Shown here piece by piece: positions 46-14,648 of a stretch of 16,930 bases of DNA. Source of the stretch: a virus (lineage: Duplodnaviria > Heunggongvirae > Uroviricota > Caudoviricetes); IMG/VR virus record IMGVR_UViG_3300000279_000019. One strand, 5' to 3'. The translations under genes and the position numbers were made by a program. The number at the start of each line of letters is the position of its first letter. The first letter of the stretch is position 1. The notes beneath the pieces were generated by a model. The model ran no database searches. It had not been told where the DNA came from and was given only the letters and a program-made list of their open reading frames with translations.

Positions 46-298
46 TTGGGGGTATCTCCACTAAACTGAACAGCAAATCCCCTCAATTGCTTGTAGAGTT
101 TGGGGTACTTAAATAGACGTCAAAAGACTAAAAGGGGCATTAATATACTGATTATAAGAGGTTTTTAAATACTTGAGTAGACTTGGGGAGACGTTAGAAT
201 GGTGCGATAATAGGAACAAAACATAAACAAAAAATACATTGATATTTAATGATATTTTCATATTTCATTTTTATAGATACCCCCAAAAGTACCCCCAA
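46..298. repeat. Cluster of 11-12 bp GGGGGTA-type repeats in direct and inverted orientation; candidate integrase arm-type sites (attP region) or int promoter/operator
   Basis: TTGGGGGTATCT at 46-57 and its exact reverse complement AGATACCCCCAA at 275-286; TTTGGGGTACTT at 99-110 and near-inverse AGTACCCCCAA at 288-298; CTTGGGGAG at 182-190. Lies immediately upstream of the int start codon in the circular reading. Confidence 0.4.
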
Positions 299-956
299 TA
301 AATTTTCCCTTATCCCAAACCAGGCAAAAATCGACTATCTAGCACTCTTTTTCTTCGAGCCTCAGCCTCACCGGCAGGCAATGATGAAGGGCTGGTGGAT
401 GCCCAAGGATAACCACTAGCGTGAAGTATTTTTTATTTCGCGGGTGTGAAAATTTGACGAGGTGGGTAGTCACGAACAACTGGGTTACAGAGATTATACC
501 CGCCACCACCTATGTTAATGAGGGCAATTATTAGTTGATATACCCACGCTCGTTTTCGCTTAATAGCAGAGCGTGCACAAAATTCACATATTTCCGTCTG
601 CATTCATCTATCGACACAGAAATTCGAGATAGTGGATATGATGAAACAAATCAGTGCTGACATGTGAACATGTTTTCCCTACAAAAATGACTTAAAGCAG
701 TCCATGATTCGGATCTGAAACGCATAAGTTATGGCAGGAATCTTGTTGCACATGGATTACATGTCAATAGCAAGCACGTCTCTGAATGAAGCGTAATTTA
801 ACGCAGATATTATTGAAGCTGCTTAAGCTCATACAGATAAAATTGATAAAAAAATATAAATGCTCAACCTATCTCAAACAACGAGATGAATTAATAGCTT
901 GATGGGCAATAAAATATATAAATAAAAAACACAACATTTAATATTGTAAGACTATG

Positions 957-989: not shown

Positions 990-2588
990 TTACCAATTAA
1001 AAATATAATCTTTTATTTTAAGATACATATCAACTTTCCCAGACCATTTTGATGCACTCTCTTTCATCTTTTCAATAACATCATCAATCAGTAAGTCTCT
1101 TCCTTTTACAATCAATTGATCATCATCAATACCCTCTGGTGCAAATTCATATATGTGCATGCTTAGATTAGACTTCTGAGTATGAGGGAATGAATCTTTT
1201 TCCACACACATATCAATAAACTCATTAATAGATAGTTCTTTCTGTTTACACATCATAAGTAATAATTCGAACTCATCAATTGTTATATAGTAAATTCTTT
1301 TTAGATCAATGGGGATACTATGATATTTTTCAGATAACTCAGTTGATAAATCAGGGTTAATAAAATCCTGCACAACCATTGCATTTGATATATGATGATC
1401 CCGATGCACCACAATTAACATTGAATCTTTCGAAGATGGTTTTCTCATCTCTATTTTATTTAAGTTAAAAGCACATTCCTGACCTTGATAAATCCCTTTA
1501 ATAAAACTCTTATTCAACCTTTCCTTTAGCAACTGAGCATTATTAGATGTTTTAACGAACTTTGCAGGCTCTATTGCCTTCGAGTCAATATAAACTATTG
1601 AATCTCCCTCTGAAATAACAAAATCTACGGACTTGCAATTTTTTATTGCATTATCACTATAAATCCTCTTAACCTCCCTTTCAGTCTTAAAGTTATAATT
1701 GTACTTATCAAGAAAGCGAGAAATATAAAGTTCCATCGTCTTACCAAATTTTTCTTTATAAGATTCCTTATAGACCTGCTTGAACAATTCTGGAACTAGG
1801 TTGACAAACCCTGACTTCATGATTCTTTTGCATAATATCACTACACCATCGCCATCTAAAAACATTGGTTTACTGAGGAATGGTGTATCTTCATAATACT
1901 CAGCGGTAATGTTTTTATCCAATTTATATGGGGCAATAAAATCTCTCACACCATCAATTTTTAAGCATGTTAATTCCAAAAATCTTTTCACTTGTTCCGG
2001 ACCAAATATCGGAACCAAGTTTATTATCAAGTGTTTAAATGGAATAACCTCTGATTCTATATCAGGATTAATACATGAAATAGCGGTAAAATAACATGCC
2101 ATTTTGTAATAGTTTTCCAAATGTAAACCAGTACATTCTAAAAACTTATCTTTATAATATGATTCATCATTCAAGCAATACCAAATATACTGTCTTGTTA
2201 ATGAATTGGCATTAAATTTATCAGTTGATTGATAAAGCAACTGATTTATCACCATTCGTCTAAGGCTTAGCATAACTTTATCATCAACGATTAAATTAGA
2301 TGCTTCTAGTTGCAAGTTATAGATTAAGTTGATAATATCAACAAAATCATTTTTACTCATTTCTTTTGCAGGCTTTTTTTCCTTCATGCAAAACTTCCAT
2401 TTCATTGCCAGATAGCAACACCAAGGGAAATTGGAAACAATACCCACCTCGACATCCCTTACTTTTTGGAAGTGTTCATAAAAATTTCTCAAAAAAGAAA
2501 CATCACTAAAATATGACAATCTTTTCTTAATCGCATCAACTTTTATAGAATATGACACTGGTGTCATTGTTTTTATTGCCACGCTCAT
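990..2588 (-). CDS. Hypothetical 532-aa protein, AT-rich cargo gene, no family recognised; possible PD-(D/E)xK-like motif
   Basis: Longest ORF in the window with ATG start and AAGG about 8 nt upstream; K/N/I/Y-rich composition from AT-rich DNA, in contrast to the roughly balanced backbone; segment VDFVISEGDSIVYIDSK resembles a D...(D/E)xK nuclease core; no Walker A motif seen. Confidence 0.75.
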   Translation of the reverse strand: MSVAIKTMTPVSYSIKVDAIKKRLSYFSDVSFLRNFYEHFQKVRDVEVGIVSNFPWCCYLAMKWKFCMKEKKPAKEMSKNDFVDIINLIYNLQLEASNLIVDDKVMLSLRRMVINQLLYQSTDKFNANSLTRQYIWYCLNDESYYKDKFLECTGLHLENYYKMACYFTAISCINPDIESEVIPFKHLIINLVPIFGPEQVKRFLELTCLKIDGVRDFIAPYKLDKNITAEYYEDTPFLSKPMFLDGDGVVILCKRIMKSGFVNLVPELFKQVYKESYKEKFGKTMELYISRFLDKYNYNFKTEREVKRIYSDNAIKNCKSVDFVISEGDSIVYIDSKAIEPAKFVKTSNNAQLLKERLNKSFIKGIYQGQECAFNLNKIEMRKPSSKDSMLIVVHRDHHISNAMVVQDFINPDLSTELSEKYHSIPIDLKRIYYITIDEFELLLMMCKQKELSINEFIDMCVEKDSFPHTQKSNLSMHIYEFAPEGIDDDQLIVKGRDLLIDDVIEKMKESASKWSGKVDMYLKIKDYIFNW

Positions 2589-4696: not shown

Positions 4697-5224
4697 TCAT
4701 TGATGGTCTGATTTTTCCCACTCAGCCAGGGCGTTTAACCCGGCTTCACTCCATGATTCCGGTTCATCGGGATAATCACCTGCAACATAGCAGAGTTCGC
4801 AACGCAGCATACGAATTGCCAGCCTGGCATTACCTCGCAAATTGTATTTTTCAAAGTAATGCTGCCCTTCATCATCCTCAAGGCAGATAGCACCATCATC
4901 AAGAAAGTGCACTTCCCAGCCTAATTCCCCGGCTGCATACAGCACACGCTGCTGTATGCCCTCGTCCGTTACTGGCGCAGGAATTTTACCGTCTCTGGCC
5001 TTAACTGCTTTCCAGAACTCGCCCCATGTCATTTCCAGCGTTCTTTCTGGCCACATTTCAGAAATGGTGCCTTTCCCCTGTGCTGGTGGGCTGTTCCGCT
5101 GCTCTGTCGCTTCCACATCAATTTTTTTACCGGACATGACCACTTCGCCTTTCTCGAGCCAGTCGTAAACTGTCTGGCGGCTTACGCCTTTGTATTTGGC
5201 GTATTCGGCTTTACTCATCAACAT
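4697..5224 (-). CDS. DNA-binding protein with N-terminal lambda Nu1-like (terminase small subunit-type) winged HTH; possible packaging-redirection or regulatory protein
   Basis: GAGGTGA SD 5 nt upstream of ATG 5224; N-terminus SKAEYAKYKGVSRQTVYDWLEKGEV closely parallels Nu1 KKQLADIFGASIRTIQNWQEQGMPV; acidic C-terminal half. Confidence 0.55.
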   Translation of the reverse strand: MLMSKAEYAKYKGVSRQTVYDWLEKGEVVMSGKKIDVEATEQRNSPPAQGKGTISEMWPERTLEMTWGEFWKAVKARDGKIPAPVTDEGIQQRVLYAAGELGWEVHFLDDGAICLEDDEGQHYFEKYNLRGNARLAIRMLRCELCYVAGDYPDEPESWSEAGLNALAEWEKSDHQ

Positions 5225-5323
5225 GTAGCTCACCTCATGCATATACGATAAAAAATAATTTCATGCGGAAAGGGAATGCGTTGTGGGTATGGAGGAAAGG
5301 GGCAATAACCGCCCCTTACTGAT

Positions 5324-7703: not shown

Positions 7704-7991
7704 TTACTGACTACAATTGTTCTTTTTTTGGTATTTCCTGAATGCCTCACCATTGGGCTGATGTAATCCCATCCCGGCATGTGCCCGGCTGATGGTTTCG
7801 CGCATCTCCCCGAAATTATCCTGCCTTGCTGGTGGGCGTGCTGCCTTGTGGATACATTCCGCGCGACGTTTTGCCGCCTGTTCCCGTGCCTTGTCATCAT
7901 TCGCCAGCATGATGACCTCAGCCCACCGCGCCGCCGCTCTCCGGTACAGACCACGCGCTTCCAGTGCTTCCGCTTTGCTGTCGTGAATCAT
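7704..7991 (-). CDS. PerC-like small transcriptional regulator (95 aa)
   Basis: ATG 7991, 4-nt overlap with the FinO-like gene stop; segment AEALEARGLYRRAAARW and C-terminal MGLHQPNGEAFRKYQKK resemble what I recall of the PerC/Pch family; assignment from memory only. Confidence 0.5.
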   Translation of the reverse strand: MIHDSKAEALEARGLYRRAAARWAEVIMLANDDKAREQAAKRRAECIHKAARPPARQDNFGEMRETISRAHAGMGLHQPNGEAFRKYQKKNNCSQ

Positions 7992-8530
7992 GCGCCTATT
8001 GTCTCCTTTGCTGCCCGGCGCTGGCGTTTGCGCTTCTCATTCAGCGCCACCAGCCGCGTTTCTGCGTCCTGTTGTTCCTGTGGTGTCACCTCGCCGCACG
8101 GCTGGCCTTTCAGGTCGTAGCGTACCCCACCAGCCATTAAGGCGCGGTAATAGCGCGGACACTGCGCATAAGATGCCAGCGTCGCACGCAATGCCCCTGG
8201 CCCGAATGCCAGCCCCCTGACGGCGAGATCCTGCATCAGGTCGTCGAATATCCCCACCTTAAGCGGCTTCAGTGCTTCCCGGCTGAATAAGTCAGGCCAC
8301 AACTCAGTGAGGCGGTTAACGCGCCTGCGGTTTTTGCGCTGGCGTTTGGTCATATGCCGCCACGGTGTCGCCCCTGTAGGCTTCTGCTGCGCTTTCTGGT
8401 TACCGGGCATCACTTTATGCGCCGATGTGGTTTTATCCTGCTCCTGTGCCGCCTGCGTCGTTTTCTGCGGCGTGCCGTAAATACCTTTTGGTTTTCTGTT
8501 AATGGTCAGCTTAGTCATGCTTTGCCCCAT
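7988..8530 (-). CDS. FinO/ProQ-domain RNA-binding protein (180 aa) with basic N-terminal extension
   Basis: Segment LTELWPDLFSREALKPLKVGIFDDLMQDL...LRATLASYAQCPRYYRALMAGGVRYDLKGQPCGEVTPQE aligns by eye with the ProQ N-terminal domain (LAERFPHCFS..ARPLKIGIFQDL...LRSALRLYTSSWRYL...RVDLDGNPCGELDEQ); alternative start ATG 8518. Confidence 0.7.
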   Translation of the reverse strand: MGQSMTKLTINRKPKGIYGTPQKTTQAAQEQDKTTSAHKVMPGNQKAQQKPTGATPWRHMTKRQRKNRRRVNRLTELWPDLFSREALKPLKVGIFDDLMQDLAVRGLAFGPGALRATLASYAQCPRYYRALMAGGVRYDLKGQPCGEVTPQEQQDAETRLVALNEKRKRQRRAAKETIGA

Positions 8531-8901: not shown

Positions 8902-10707
8902 TTATGTTCTGTCGTTAATCCCTGTAGCTGCTGGCAACCAGCCATCAGCATCATCATCTAACAGAACATTTGTTATCACTCGCCCTTTATCCGGGCCTTT
9001 AGTGCATTTAGCCCGCTTATACTCCTTTCCGTATTCCGCCATAGCTCCTGGCATATCAGTACCAAAGCGTGTCAGTGATACTGGTTTTCCCAGGCCATGC
9101 GCTGACATATAGGCTAAATAAGCATGATACAGGTATCGCCTCGGGCTAAATGGCACTATTTCCGCATTGCCCACCATCATTCCTTCACATTTAACCAACG
9201 ACATCAGATAGCCGCAAAAGTCCACCAGTGAATCACCTTCGCGCTTTATCAACAGCGCTTCTTCTGATTTTTGCTGCTCATAAAGTAGTCTTTTAGCTTC
9301 GTCCTGGTCGGTAAATCGTGTTAGCAAATGGCGAATCACTACCGCCAGTTCGCCTTCTATCTTTTCCGCCAGCATGGGATCGCGTTCGTTCTCCGGTACG
9401 ACCTCAGAGAAATTAAATATCACCCTACGACGCGAGATCCCCCCGCTTCGGTCACTGAATGACATGGCGTTATTGTTTACCGCAAGCACTACTGCCGGAA
9501 TACGTGTGGAGTAGGGGGCTTTATGTTTCGGATCAATTGCCACCTTGTCGCCGCCAGTAATTGCCTTAATTCCTGCACCATCGCCAGCGTAGCGAGTCAT
9601 ATCCGGCATGATAATCAGCGAAAAGCCAACTACTAACGCGCGTTCCCTTGCGTCTTCCAGAGCCTTCATGCTTGCCGATACTGTGTTGGCCTTACCCGCC
9701 AGCATGGTACAAATCTCAGCCATCACACTTTTACCGCTTCCGCCTGGGCCTGTTACCTCAAGGAATAACTGCCAGTCGTACCGGTTCGCCAGCACCATGA
9801 ATAATGCCGCCAGTACGCGATCAGCTTTACGATCATTATCTGCCACCGAACGACGCAGCCACTTCCAGAAATTCGGCGCATGTGTTGCCAGCGTTTCCCC
9901 CTCTGCTGGTGGGCTGAACGGTAATTCACTGGCATTTAACAACCAGTCATTTTTGTTATGCTCCCGAAAATTTCCCGTCCGGGTATCAAATACCCCGTTA
10001 CTGAATCCAATAAGATTCCTGTCTGCCCCGCCCATAACAGGCAGGCTCAATTTCATTGTGTCTACGGCAAATTTAATGGCGTTTTGCGAATAACTGATTC
10101 CAGCATCAATAAAAATCTTCGCCATAGACCGCTGGAGTTCCTTATCAGATACAGGCACCCAGACAATTCCGTTGTAATGGTGAACTACATCAGAATCATC
10201 ATTTATAGCCAGTGCTCTTCCATAATATTCAAGTAACACTTCCCCTCTCTGGCTGGCTCCCATCTGATTTAGTGCTGGCCTGGATAGGTCAATATTTTTT
10301 GTGGCTAATTTCATCGCTGAAACTTCCCCACTCTCTGCCTGTTCGCGGATCCGTTGCAGGTAGTCGCGCCAGTTTTCCGGCTCCCGGTCGGTGATACCTT
10401 TGTATAATTTCGCGTCCTGTACACCAGCCAGCGCCAGCTTTTCAGCAATAGCATTGATCTGGATTGGCTCTATCTCCCCCGCGAGATAGACACGCGCAAA
10501 GCGGCGTTCATCGTCGACAATGCGGATATTCGCCAGGTCTGCCAGTTGCTTTGGCCCCAGGTAAACAGGAGGCACGTTATCGCCGTGTTTTCGTCCTTCG
10601 CTTTCAATCCAGTGTTGAGCATGGGCGTAAGCATCCGTCCCGGCAAAAATGATTACCTCGGTGAATTTATCCTTCGGCTGATATTTTAAATTCGGTGCGT
10701 TTTTCAC
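8902..10707 (-). CDS. P4 alpha-like primase/helicase (601 aa)
   Basis: GTG start with GGAGG SD 6 nt upstream; Walker A GPGGSGKS; D5_N-like FSNGVFDTRTG motif; general architecture typical of phage/plasmid P4-family primases; iterons immediately downstream. Confidence 0.85.
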   Translation of the reverse strand: MKNAPNLKYQPKDKFTEVIIFAGTDAYAHAQHWIESEGRKHGDNVPPVYLGPKQLADLANIRIVDDERRFARVYLAGEIEPIQINAIAEKLALAGVQDAKLYKGITDREPENWRDYLQRIREQAESGEVSAMKLATKNIDLSRPALNQMGASQRGEVLLEYYGRALAINDDSDVVHHYNGIVWVPVSDKELQRSMAKIFIDAGISYSQNAIKFAVDTMKLSLPVMGGADRNLIGFSNGVFDTRTGNFREHNKNDWLLNASELPFSPPAEGETLATHAPNFWKWLRRSVADNDRKADRVLAALFMVLANRYDWQLFLEVTGPGGSGKSVMAEICTMLAGKANTVSASMKALEDARERALVVGFSLIIMPDMTRYAGDGAGIKAITGGDKVAIDPKHKAPYSTRIPAVVLAVNNNAMSFSDRSGGISRRRVIFNFSEVVPENERDPMLAEKIEGELAVVIRHLLTRFTDQDEAKRLLYEQQKSEEALLIKREGDSLVDFCGYLMSLVKCEGMMVGNAEIVPFSPRRYLYHAYLAYMSAHGLGKPVSLTRFGTDMPGAMAEYGKEYKRAKCTKGPDKGRVITNVLLDDDADGWLPAATGINDRT

Positions 10708-11783: not shown

Positions 11784-12000
11784 GGTGCACCTCCTGTACA
11801 TCAGCCATGATAATTTTTCCGGCCTTATCCAGTGCCTGATCGGCTTTCAGCTGCACAAATGCTAAATAATGGGAGATGCATTCTGATTCTCTGGCTGCGT
11901 GTTTATGCGCCACACCAGCGATAGCAGAAATCTCAATAAGTGAATCCATCAGCGTTTTGATAGCGTCTACCGCTGCATCAGGCCATGTTGCATTACACAT
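11776..12000 (-). CDS. Hypothetical protein (74 aa)
   Basis: ATG 12000 in an ATGTGTAA overlap with the upstream gene stop; coupled to the next gene by ATGCATAA. Confidence 0.5.
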   Translation of the reverse strand: MCNATWPDAAVDAIKTLMDSLIEISAIAGVAHKHAARESECISHYLAFVQLKADQALDKAGKIIMADVQEVHHA

Positions 12001-12358
12001 GCTCCACCTCCTGGCGAATACGGGCAGCGAATACCATCACGCAGCCATCAGGAGATTGCTGGCGTGCTTCCTGTTCGCTGGTGGCCTCGATGTGAATCAC
12101 GCGCGGTTGTGCCGTACTCAGGGCGATAAAACGCCAGATAAAATTGTTTTCGCATTTCTGAATAAACAACGTGTTTTCTTCGCGCCCTTTCCATGTTGCC
12201 GAGATATAGCCCATGTCATTGAGCATCTCGCAGGCATCAACCAGCGTATCGGCGGCTACATGAACAGTGTTTTTACCGTCAGCCATGCAATCACGGTGCA
12301 CCGCCAGGAAGGTGTATATAAATTTAGGGTGAGTTTGGGTATGCTGTGCCCCAGCCAT
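11993..12358 (-). CDS. Hypothetical protein (121 aa), first gene of the replication operon
   Basis: ATG 12358 with GAGGT SD about 5 nt upstream, located at the C-terminal end of a 512-aa open frame whose upstream part I consider spurious; product MAGAQHTQTHPKFIYTFLAVHRD... Confidence 0.5.
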   Translation of the reverse strand: MAGAQHTQTHPKFIYTFLAVHRDCMADGKNTVHVAADTLVDACEMLNDMGYISATWKGREENTLFIQKCENNFIWRFIALSTAQPRVIHIEATSEQEARQQSPDGCVMVFAARIRQEVEHV

Positions 12359-12447
12359 AATCGTTACCTCATTTAACGGTTTGGTTAGACGCCCCGCTAC
12401 TGCCGCAAACAGTTCGGGGCGTTGTCGTTTATATCCTCTTACTGAGG

Positions 12448-12523
12448 TGTGATTTAAATTAAATTTAACTGAATCACAGGTCAAGTATTTTTTGTGATTC
12501 TTTTTTGTGTATACTGAATCACA
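12448..12523. promoter_or_regulatory. Two dyad-symmetric operators TGTGATT-N17-AATCACA in the divergent promoter region
   Basis: TGTGATT 12448-12454 / AATCACA 12472-12478 and TGTGATT 12493-12499 / AATCACA 12517-12523, 45 bp centre to centre; TATACT -10-like hexamer at 12510-12515; sits between the divergent RHH-like gene and the replication operon. Confidence 0.55.
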
Positions 12524-12545
12524 TCTTTTGTTTAGGAGAATGCAC

Positions 12546-12851
12546 ATGGCAAAAAACACTATCAACGACAAATCAAAACAGATTTCAATTCGTATCCCAC
12601 ATGATGCTTTTGAAGGCATGGAATCCGTAAAACTGGACGGCGAAAGCAACGCCGGATTCATAGTAACCGCCATGCGTGGTGAGATCGCCCGCCGCCAGGC
12701 AGAAGGAAGCGGAGAAAATCCCCTAGTTTCTTCGCTCAATGCACTGGCGCAGGTGGAAAAAATCGGAGTCAAAGCTGTCGAGGAGATCGGGCAGCTCGTC
12801 ACCGTCGCACGTGAAGAACTCCAGCGCCGCAAGGCCAAAGAATCAGAATAA
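12546..12851 (+). CDS. Putative ribbon-helix-helix-type transcriptional regulator (101 aa), candidate master repressor of the element
   Basis: AGGAG SD 8 nt upstream of ATG 12546; N-terminal KQISIRIPHDAFEGM resembles an RHH beta-strand/helix start; only plus-strand gene here, divergent from the replication operon and adjacent to the dyad operators. Confidence 0.55.
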   Translation: MAKNTINDKSKQISIRIPHDAFEGMESVKLDGESNAGFIVTAMRGEIARRQAEGSGENPLVSSLNALAQVEKIGVKAVEEIGQLVTVAREELQRRKAKESE

Positions 12852-13523
12852 TAACTATCATCGCCGTGGTGTGAGGAACTCCGGCGCATTGCTTTACAGG
12901 TACACAGAATGACCAACAAAGAATCGACCAATACACCATCACCGGCACGGAAAAGACAGCGCAGAAAGATAGCGTACGAATATGAGTCAGACAGATTCGC
13001 GCCCTGTGCGTTTATCCTTGAGAAATTCCTTAAAGAGTACAGGCGCACAAAAATGGGGTCGCATACCTGGAAAACATCGCGGCATGGCAATGTTAAAGAG
13101 CAGGAATAGCCCACCAGCAAGCCAGCACACTGATCACATTGCCCACCAGCCGCAAATCTGGCATTGTTGGCGATGTGTTCAAGTGTGTAGCTTTCCCACT
13201 GGTGGCCCTCTGCGGTCGCCTTTGTTTTATCCAGAACGAAATTAGACATCAGATTGATCATCACCTTGCGACCTGACAAAATCGCATCAGTCGCGCCACC
13301 AGCAAAATTTTTTGCTTTCCGGACAGCGTGACCAACGACATTTTGCAGCAAAATATTCTGCATTTCTGGCGTGCTGTAGTAACGGTGATCAGCGCCTTCA
13401 CTCTGTGCGACCACAACGCTATAATCTGCCTCGTAGACAGTAAGCAATATGGCGCAGTAGGCTATTCGTTCACAAAGGCGCTCCGGCAACGGGGCGCTTT
13501 CTCTTTTTGTAACGGTCAGAGCG

Positions 13524-14450: not shown

Positions 14451-14648
14451 TCAGGTAGCTGTTCCGCGTGATTCCGCAATACGCTGATTAATCCACTCGT
14501 CAATTTCACTCTCAACGAAAGCAATAGCTCGCGAGCCAATTTTAACTGATGCAGGAAATTTACCTTGCCCCATAAGGCGATAAATCCATGCCTTGCTATA
14601 TCCAGTTCTACGCTGAACTTCCGTTAAACGAATAAGAGAGTTTGCCAT
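14451..14648 (-). CDS. alpA: AlpA-family regulator / excisionase (65 aa)
   Basis: AAGGTGA SD; LIRLTEVQRRTGYSKAWIYRLMGQGKFP...VESEIDEWINQR aligns with E. coli AlpA ILRLPAVIQKTGMARATIYDWL...IEAEIDEWLSQR. Confidence 0.8.
   Translation of the reverse strand: MANSLIRLTEVQRRTGYSKAWIYRLMGQGKFPASVKIGSRAIAFVESEIDEWINQRIAESRGTAT

Follow-up and report, generated by a model that had tools for sequence, protein, structure and literature searches.

The DNA analysed here, referred to as the window, is the whole 16,930-nucleotide stretch of the virus record IMGVR_UViG_3300000279_000019 (Caudoviricetes). Judged from its sequence, it is a phage-satellite island of Escherichia coli of the phage-inducible chromosomal island (PICI) type, located at tRNA-Thr. 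At positions 12448-12851 the window holds a divergent switch, in which two exact copies of the dyad TGTGATT-N17-AATCACA lie over the predicted promoters of a leftward replication operon and of a rightward gene for a 101-aa protein of the YlcI/YnfO family. Among related loci, such repeated sites change in step with a few residues of the predicted N-terminal beta-strand of this protein. With a probability of roughly 0.7, the protein is a repressor of the ribbon-helix-helix (RHH) type that silences the replication operon as well as its own gene.

Twin dyads over divergent promoters

A sequence-only reading of this region had proposed twin operators with identical arms, 45 bp apart, overlapping a -10-like hexamer. 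Both dyads were found with 0 mismatches, 45 bp from start to start, and they were the sole matches in the window even with 2 mismatches allowed. In shuffled sequence the mean number of dyad matches was 0.15, and 2 matches were reached in 1 of 200 shuffles. Four of the six TGTGATT heptamers of the window fall within the dyads, the right arms of which form part of a longer 11-nt direct repeat, ACTGAATCACA. The elements of the switch are as follows.

12448-12478: operator O_L, dyad TGTGATT-N17-AATCACA with arms at 12448-12454 and 12472-12478; covers the spacer, -10 and start region of P_L
12456-12484, minus strand: predicted leftward promoter P_L, with -35 TTGACC (reverse complement of 12479-12484), a 17-nt spacer and -10 TAATTT (reverse complement of 12456-12461); predicted start at about 12449
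12493-12523: operator O_R, dyad TGTGATT-N17-AATCACA with arms at 12493-12499 and 12517-12523; flanks the -10 of P_R as a mirror image of O_L
12510-12515, plus strand: -10 TATACT of the predicted rightward promoter P_R, inside the O_R spacer; predicted start at about 12522
12546-12851, plus strand: regulator gene, encoding a 101-aa YlcI/YnfO-family protein (NCBIfam NF041551; phrog_6522)

The -10-like hexamer is thus TATACT in the spacer of the second dyad. The overlap with the rightward -10 was as described before, and to it is added an overlap of the first dyad with the leftward promoter, which had gone unnoted. P_L is predicted to drive the operon of the icd-like, DUF4222 and primase genes, and P_R the regulator gene, the ATG of which lies at 12546 with AGGAGA (12534-12539) six bases upstream. 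The comparison covered about 100 related loci: 7 taken from complete E. coli genomes, 10 from other genera and 80 from IMG/VR, plus the island EcCICFT073. The CTTGAC block of P_L is kept in all of them, and a promoter-like P_L site with 7-10 of 12 matches stands at the same position in 7 of the 8 classes scanned, locus L016 being different. The counterpart of P_L in EcCICFT073, TTGACG-18-TATAGT, was found independently by a generic promoter scan. On the rightward side, the P_R block TTTTGTGTATAnT, about 36 nt before the regulator ATG, is conserved in most classes. Relative to each predicted start, one arm of the dyad spans about -29 to -23 and the other about -5 to +2, and the -10 falls within the spacer; this mirror-image geometry is as expected of operators that occlude RNA polymerase.

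Specificity classes and the fold of the regulator

The regulators were grouped into classes by the eight residues that follow a conserved Lys-Ser. Across nine classes, the sites change in step with residues 11-15, while the promoter scaffold and the remaining protein are constant. The E. coli homologues are 74-90% identical overall, their differences being concentrated in residues 2-17, and the nucleotide (BLAST) similarity of the window to other variants begins at 12590, that is, at codon 15. The swapped cassette contains no coding sequence other than that for the N-terminus of the YlcI-like protein. The classes and their sites are listed below; as the motifs were read off the data, the list is descriptive.

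KQISIRIP (class of the window), 32 loci: TGTGATT
QSLTARIP, 25 loci: TGTAAG
QMTTIRVP, 20 loci: GTGAGATA(TA)CA
QLTTVRVP, 18 loci: GTGTGTTTC
QKLQARAP: TGGATTCCA
QMKNIRFP: TGT-N-ACA palindromes
QQINARFP: GGGATTCA
RQKTARVP: GTGACTCCCACC
QALKARVP (EcCICFT073): GGTGTGGCCCAC, twice

In the four large classes, each 95-nt operator region carries about 4 cognate motifs and 0 motifs of the other large classes, against a background of 0.01-0.12. The sites are also preserved over wide distances. Yersinia pekkanenii carries TGTGATT-N17-AATCACA twice, though its protein is 64% identical and its spacers differ; Xenorhabdus and Photorhabdus have GTGTGTTTC/GAAACACAC in common with E. coli, and Enterobacter soli has TGTAAG in common with it. 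Within the class of the window, Yersinia included, the dyads recur in related loci; the other classes carry repeated sites of their own, placed alike around the constant promoter blocks. Among 11 distinct sequences of the window's class, variable columns numbered 0 of 28 in the arms, 10 of 34 in the spacers, 6 of 14 between the dyads and 22 of 30 upstream; in the first dyad of the QLTTVRVP class they numbered 2 of 18 in the arms and 14 of 15 in the spacer. The covariation is indirect evidence that the beta-strand of the protein reads short repeated sites, as that of an RHH protein would. The divergent promoters, and the sites that covary with beta-strand residues, support the repressor/operator arrangement put forward by the sequence-only reading, and it is from them that we infer binding and repression.

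Two loci, L037 and L041 (1760-1939, 2501-2806), carry a tandem pair of switch modules that differ in class and lie about 740 bp apart. A 59-aa short form is encoded by the first, and the second has a mutated P_L -35 (TTGACC to TTTACC or TTTGCC), as if it were decaying.

The N-terminal model of NCBIfam NF041551 (DUF3950) matches residues 9-50 of the regulator with 64.9 bits (cut-off 30; E 5e-18). Neither this family nor phrog_6522 has a known function, and Pfam gave no hit for the regulator at 0.01. AlphaFold, supplied with 45 homologues, predicts an extended segment over residues 11-17, then helices spanning 19-28 and 35-55, a linker of lower confidence and a long helix at 59-100 (pLDDT 85). 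The extended segment and the helices, here counted as 19-28 and 35-53, have pLDDT values of about 86-93, and the same picture was obtained when the N-terminal 56 residues were modelled alone. An N-terminal strand followed by two helices, the arrangement of RHH proteins, is accordingly present in the models, which are of the monomer; the strand would pair only in a dimer. Pairwise hhalign comparisons of the family profile with the phage P22 proteins aligned residues 8-30 with Arc 5-27 (E 9e-4) and residues 12-25 with Mnt 7-20 (E 0.022). This register puts Q12, S14 and R16 on Arc Q9, N11 and R13, which are base-contacting side chains in the Arc-operator complex. Across the family R16 never changes, whereas residues 12 and 14 depend on the class. 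Weak sub-threshold Pfam matches to PF07704 (Rv0623-like transcription factor), an RHH-type antitoxin family, were obtained for 34 of the 45 members (best E 1e-3), and some homologues carry CopG- or Arc-like labels from their sources. A sequence search of the PDB with the regulator brought up no RHH protein.

For the C-terminal part two readings compete: an oligomerisation helix, in line with the single continuous helix of the AlphaFold model, or a helix-hairpin-helix. The latter is suggested by a PDB profile search, in which residues 59-85 (window 12720-12800) matched the helix-hairpin-helix of the Hef nuclease (1x2i) with E 0.006, and by Ile-Gly (I73-G74), which is invariant in the family. 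Natural short forms without the C-terminal part occur in EcCICFT073, L037, L041 and L017.

Proposed control of the island and rival explanations

The proposed control involves the following features around the switch.

8902-10707, minus strand: D5_N-type primase gene, at the end of the leftward operon, after overlapping small open reading frames (ORFs) and the DUF4222 gene
11993-12358, minus strand: icd-like gene, 121 aa, the first of the leftward operon, with the Icd-like domain at residues 73-116
12909-13109, plus strand: ORF of 66 aa after the regulator gene, annotated in RefSeq relatives (phrog_21027)
13201-13220, plus strand: second terminator-like candidate in the regulator direction, from the hairpin scan
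13475-13500, plus strand: terminator-like hairpin, the predicted end of rightward transcription from the regulator gene; also present in EcCICFT073
14451-14648, minus strand: alpA, the activator known for such islands (Pfam Phage_AlpA, 2.4e-19), convergent with the regulator gene and reading toward the switch

In the favoured mechanism, one dimer would sit on each of four 7-bp sites, two per promoter, and the long C-terminal helix would probably join the dimers into a higher oligomer. Occupancy of the dyads would shut P_L of the icd-like/DUF4222/primase operon and would limit the regulator's own promoter (autoregulation), by which the integrated satellite would be kept quiet. The simplest route to opening the switch would be AlpA-driven transcription that runs, antisense, through the regulator gene into the replication operon. 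That AlpA must act on or over the switch follows from the published induction behaviour of EcCICFT073, in which AlpA is the activator and is induced by helper phage, over-expressed AlpA alone leads to excision and runaway replication needing pri, and an ORF3 reporter fusion requires alpA for its expression. Read-through from alpA appears plausible because alpA, and here antA too, reads toward the 3' end of the regulator gene and terminator-like hairpins were found for the regulator direction only; in the hairpin scan, no minus-strand (alpA-direction) terminator was detected between antA and the regulator gene. AntA is unlikely to be a general dedicated antirepressor, since several loci with the switch are without antA. 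The role in maintenance versus replication of the element would follow from the promoter geometry, and it must square with induction by AlpA alone in EcCICFT073.

Several observations weigh against this interpretation. The -35 region of P_R is T-rich and poor, with no recognisable hexamer, and the geometry of the sites varies by class, being inverted repeats in some and direct repeats in others. On the side of the protein, all Pfam hits to the RHH clan were below threshold. A fold search with the full model returned long helices only, and one with the N-terminal model returned a single transcription-factor/DNA complex at E 8.6; neither returned an RHH fold. The RHH-like character claimed for the regulator from the sequence alone is thus upheld by the Arc/Mnt register and the strand-helix-helix of the AlphaFold model, but its support is good rather than conclusive, as the fold searches did not confirm the fold. 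The PICI EcCIMP1 is without a YlcI-like regulator gene and has all core genes on one strand; the switch is therefore not universal in this island group. Finally, over-expression of AlpA alone is published to trigger EcCICFT073 replication. Since AlpA alone suffices, the putative repressor is not an insurmountable lock and may be a modulator, not the master switch.

It is conceivable, though unlikely, that the protein binds these sites without repressing replication, being only an autoregulator, an activator of one promoter or a partition protein of the omega/ParG-like RHH kind. The sufficiency of AlpA for EcCICFT073 induction would suit such a reading. Bound to O_L, the protein could activate P_R, as lambda CI does at PRM; P_R is without a -35, and relative to its start the O_L right arm stands at about -47, a position where activators work. 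For a partition role speaks the heptad of the arms, which is identical to the omega consensus. Both dyads, however, overlap a promoter -10 and start region, which is the usual position for occlusion, and the four sites are spaced out instead of forming an uninterrupted run of 7-10 heptads. Scans of the window proteins (Pfam, NCBIfam, PHROGs) and the RefSeq annotation of the near-identical island showed no ParA-type ATPase; with omega/ParG-type centromere binders the heptad sequence alone is shared. There is a very small chance that the dyads are bound by another factor (AlpA, host CRP or a product of the leftward operon) and that the YlcI-like protein is unrelated to them. The TGTGA/TCACA cores of the arms do resemble CRP half-sites, but they are 21 bp apart here instead of 6, and other classes are without any TGTGA; CRP sites were rejected on this spacing and absence. 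For AlpA alone a regulatory role in such islands has been established by experiment, yet it was rejected as the specificity determinant because L004 and L005 have identical AlpA (WP_000737991.1) and different sites. Any such factor would also have to contend with the swapped cassette, which codes for the N-terminus of the YlcI-like protein only.

Just as improbable is the view that the regulator and the 66-aa ORF form a toxin-antitoxin module, with the dyads as the autoregulatory operator of the antitoxin. Many RHH antitoxins have about 100 aa and control their own genes via inverted repeats, and the weak PF07704 matches described above fit such a protein. This view was nevertheless rejected on gene spacing and the non-conserved partner: the two reading frames are separated by a 57-bp gap, and some related loci retain the switch but lack the 66-aa ORF or have something else in its place. 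Moreover, of the two operators one belongs to the divergent promoter of the replication genes. As for repeats that arose by chance or as a mutational by-product without function, the short arm length is all that favours them, and their probability is close to nil. The 0.15 matches expected from shuffling, the arms that stay invariant across genera while the spacers drift, and the class-specific sites in nine classes stand against it, and the comparative data refute it. The RHH-type repressor thus remains the preferred reading of the switch.

The island, its antisense RNA candidate and known systems

An island copy 99.8% identical to the window is present in strain K56-43-un, at tRNA-Thr beside proA. 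Along the minus strand, integrase comes first, then a 243-aa ORF, alpA and an AntA-type antirepressor gene, after which come the plus-strand regulator gene and 66-aa ORF; the minus strand continues with the icd-like gene, four small overlapping ORFs, DUF4222 and the D5_N-type primase, and then with ProQ/FinO, PerC, genes without a known role and GapS1. The leftward genes are likely one operon, as their starts and stops overlap all the way from 12358 to the primase, and the synteny of this operon is kept in loci L001-L007 and L171. The regulator gene had been described as the only plus-strand backbone gene. It does lie on the plus strand, but it is followed by the 66-aa ORF, which is conserved yet missing from some related loci and is probably co-transcribed with it.

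With int and alpA at one end, a primase module and a tRNA att site, the layout is that of a Gram-negative PICI of the EcCICFT073 type. Scans of the window proteins recognised neither virion genes nor the P4 genes sid, delta and psu, and the RefSeq annotation of the near-identical island likewise shows none of these P4 genes. Without psu, delta or sid matches and without a C4 or isrK match in Rfam, the island does not group with P4-like satellites. EcCIMP1, a published PICI (locus L098, E. coli MP1), uses the same tRNA-Thr att site and has near-identical integrase, alpA, antA, icd-like and PerC genes. Helper-phage induction and packaging have been reported for both relatives, EcCICFT073 and EcCIMP1.

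Some further observations concern individual genes. The Icd-like protein matches the PHROG 'transcriptional repressor' families phrog_6196 and phrog_1743, its RefSeq name is cell-division inhibitor, and its gene is annotated as truncated or with internal stops in some genomes. A ProQ/FinO-family RNA chaperone (7988-8530, minus strand) and a PerC-family regulator (7704-7991, minus strand) are encoded 3' of the primase. A 181-aa protein (4697-5242, minus strand) weakly resembles small terminase subunits in its N-terminal part (phrog_57, E 2e-6) and may be an Rpp-like packaging-redirection protein. At the low-GC (about 31-33%) accessory end lies a 532-aa gene (990-2588, minus strand), labelled GapS1 (anti-phage defence) in RefSeq relatives; PADLOC 2.0 did not recognise this gene and its neighbours. 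The control of such islands bears on phage-bacteria ecology, since they carry defence genes, here GapS1. At the island's far end (window 109-440; L001 418-753), a partial integrase Arm DNA-binding domain suggests a remnant of a second, tandem element.

Between P_L and the icd-like start codon, a conserved hairpin pair looks like a candidate cis-antisense RNA over the icd-like ribosome-binding site.

12340-12434, plus strand: candidate cis-antisense RNA of about 85 nt, complementary to the icd-like gene at its 5' untranslated region (UTR), ribosome-binding site and start codon
12340-12345, plus strand: -10-like TATGCT of the candidate
12353-12386, plus strand: stem-loop 1
12388-12423, plus strand: stem-loop 2, followed by a U-rich tail

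RNAalifold on 21 diverse sequences gave 23 pairs for this hairpin pair, 12 of them with compensatory changes, and for the second hairpin alone compensatory changes occurred in 10 of 14 pairs. The plus strand is favoured, with 241 of 252 cells pairing on it (31 as G·U) and 210 when read on the minus strand; one pair of the first hairpin is G·U in 19 of the 21 sequences, and the U-rich tail follows the second hairpin on the plus strand only. The plus-strand segment 12351-12436 folds with z = -4.4 and has an anti-Shine-Dalgarno CCUC in its first loop. At a fixed upstream distance stands TAnnnT, which is TATGCT in the window and TGGTATGAT or TGGTATAAT elsewhere, with the caveat that this -10-like motif overlaps conserved His-Thr codons. 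Rfam scans of the switch region (gathering threshold; E up to 5) gave no known family, C4 and isrK being absent. In form and position the candidate is like FinP, which is short, forms two hairpins and lies opposite the 5' UTR and ribosome-binding site of the gene that opens an operon. An icd-type gene is under RNA control in P1; the C4 and CI immunity RNAs of P1 and P4 are made from the sense strand, whereas the candidate here is antisense. The ProQ/FinO-family gene of the island suggests, by analogy, a FinP/FinO-like pairing; their co-occurrence is partial, the homologue being present on about 22 of the 80 IMG/VR contigs with the switch.

The module is also present in EcCICFT073 (CFT073, NC_004431; L171 10474-10853, record 1380473-1380852). 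There, a 59-aa YlcI/YnfO protein (C_RS30120, a recently added tag) is encoded divergently from the Icd-like gene, beyond which lie small ORFs, DUF4222 and the primase. The module is common: in a set of 5426 complete E. coli genomes, 650 gave a match to the version in the window, which extended over most of that version in 71 cases, and 1000 gave a match to the Nissle-type version, extending over most of it in 385. Literature searches found no repressor identified for EcCICFT073 and, in the library searched, no later paper filling that gap; searches on YlcI, YnfO, DUF3950, and PICI with ribbon-helix-helix found nothing functional. A 2023 survey places Bro-N proteins and immunity RNAs in the zone between alpA and replication, and text searches of it found no mention of a YlcI-like protein. 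A wider proposal is tentative, and we consider it rather doubtful as a whole: the module would be the resident repressor missing from the Gram-negative PICI picture, with at least nine 'immunity' classes arising through a swap of an approximately 140-bp cassette (four operators plus recognition-strand codons), a FinP-like antisense RNA as a second lock on the icd-like/replication operon, and AlpA-driven convergent transcription as the means of unlocking. The switch offers a concrete candidate repressor and its DNA sites for this question in the model island itself, and the uncharacterised DUF3950 family gains a testable function. The natural specificity classes form a series for studying how RHH proteins read DNA and may include orthogonal repressor/operator pairs.

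Among known systems, Arc and Mnt of P22 share with the regulator a small N-terminal beta-strand with two helices, and their operators overlap divergent promoters (Pant/Pmnt, immI). The motif xIRxPxD/E-V of the regulator is in register with FNLRWPREV of Arc and FNFRMPMEV of Mnt, and Mnt has a C-terminal helical oligomerisation domain. The similarity is marginal (pairwise hhalign E 9e-4, no database-level hit), the centres of the half-sites are 24 and 21 bp apart here and about one helical turn apart in Arc/Mnt, and the controlled operon is icd-like/primase here but the antirepressor gene in P22, the island's antA being located elsewhere, behind alpA. In the same NCBIfam family are YlcI (DLP12) and YnfO (Qin) of E. 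coli K-12, of 64-77 aa, beside cos/nohD of lambdoid prophages; K-12 YlcI shares the motif of the regulator, as TRNIRFPNQMIEQI, and inspection of the K-12 ylcI (DLP12) region for twin dyads revealed none that was obvious.

The omega protein of pSM19035 is an RHH dimer that binds one non-palindromic heptad, 5'-WATCACW-3', in either orientation and overlapping promoters (PMC9499535), which is a precedent for the single dimer per site proposed here. The arm AATCACA (12472-12478, 12517-12523) fits this consensus exactly, which may be a coincidence or a convergent recognition via Ser/Thr and Arg on the beta-strand. Omega uses contiguous heptad arrays together with a ParA ATPase, whereas the heptads here are four, isolated and 21-24 bp apart, with no ParA found. 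Stl/Rpr of the Gram-positive PICIs (SaPIs) is transcribed divergently from the satellite replication operon (PMC6092414). The regulator resembles Stl in this position and in its presumed silencing role, but the Stl gene is found on the integrase side, in the orientation of int, while the gene here is opposite to int, which sets it apart from the SaPI-type Stl/Rpr group. A helper-phage derepressor is part of the Stl system; none is known here, the Gram-negative model being induced through AlpA. Stl is a helix-turn-helix protein, and the fold class apparently differs. Taken together, the logic of the switch would be that of an Arc/Mnt- or CopG-style autoregulated repressor at divergent promoters, which stands in the place of Stl and yet does not belong to the Stl family.

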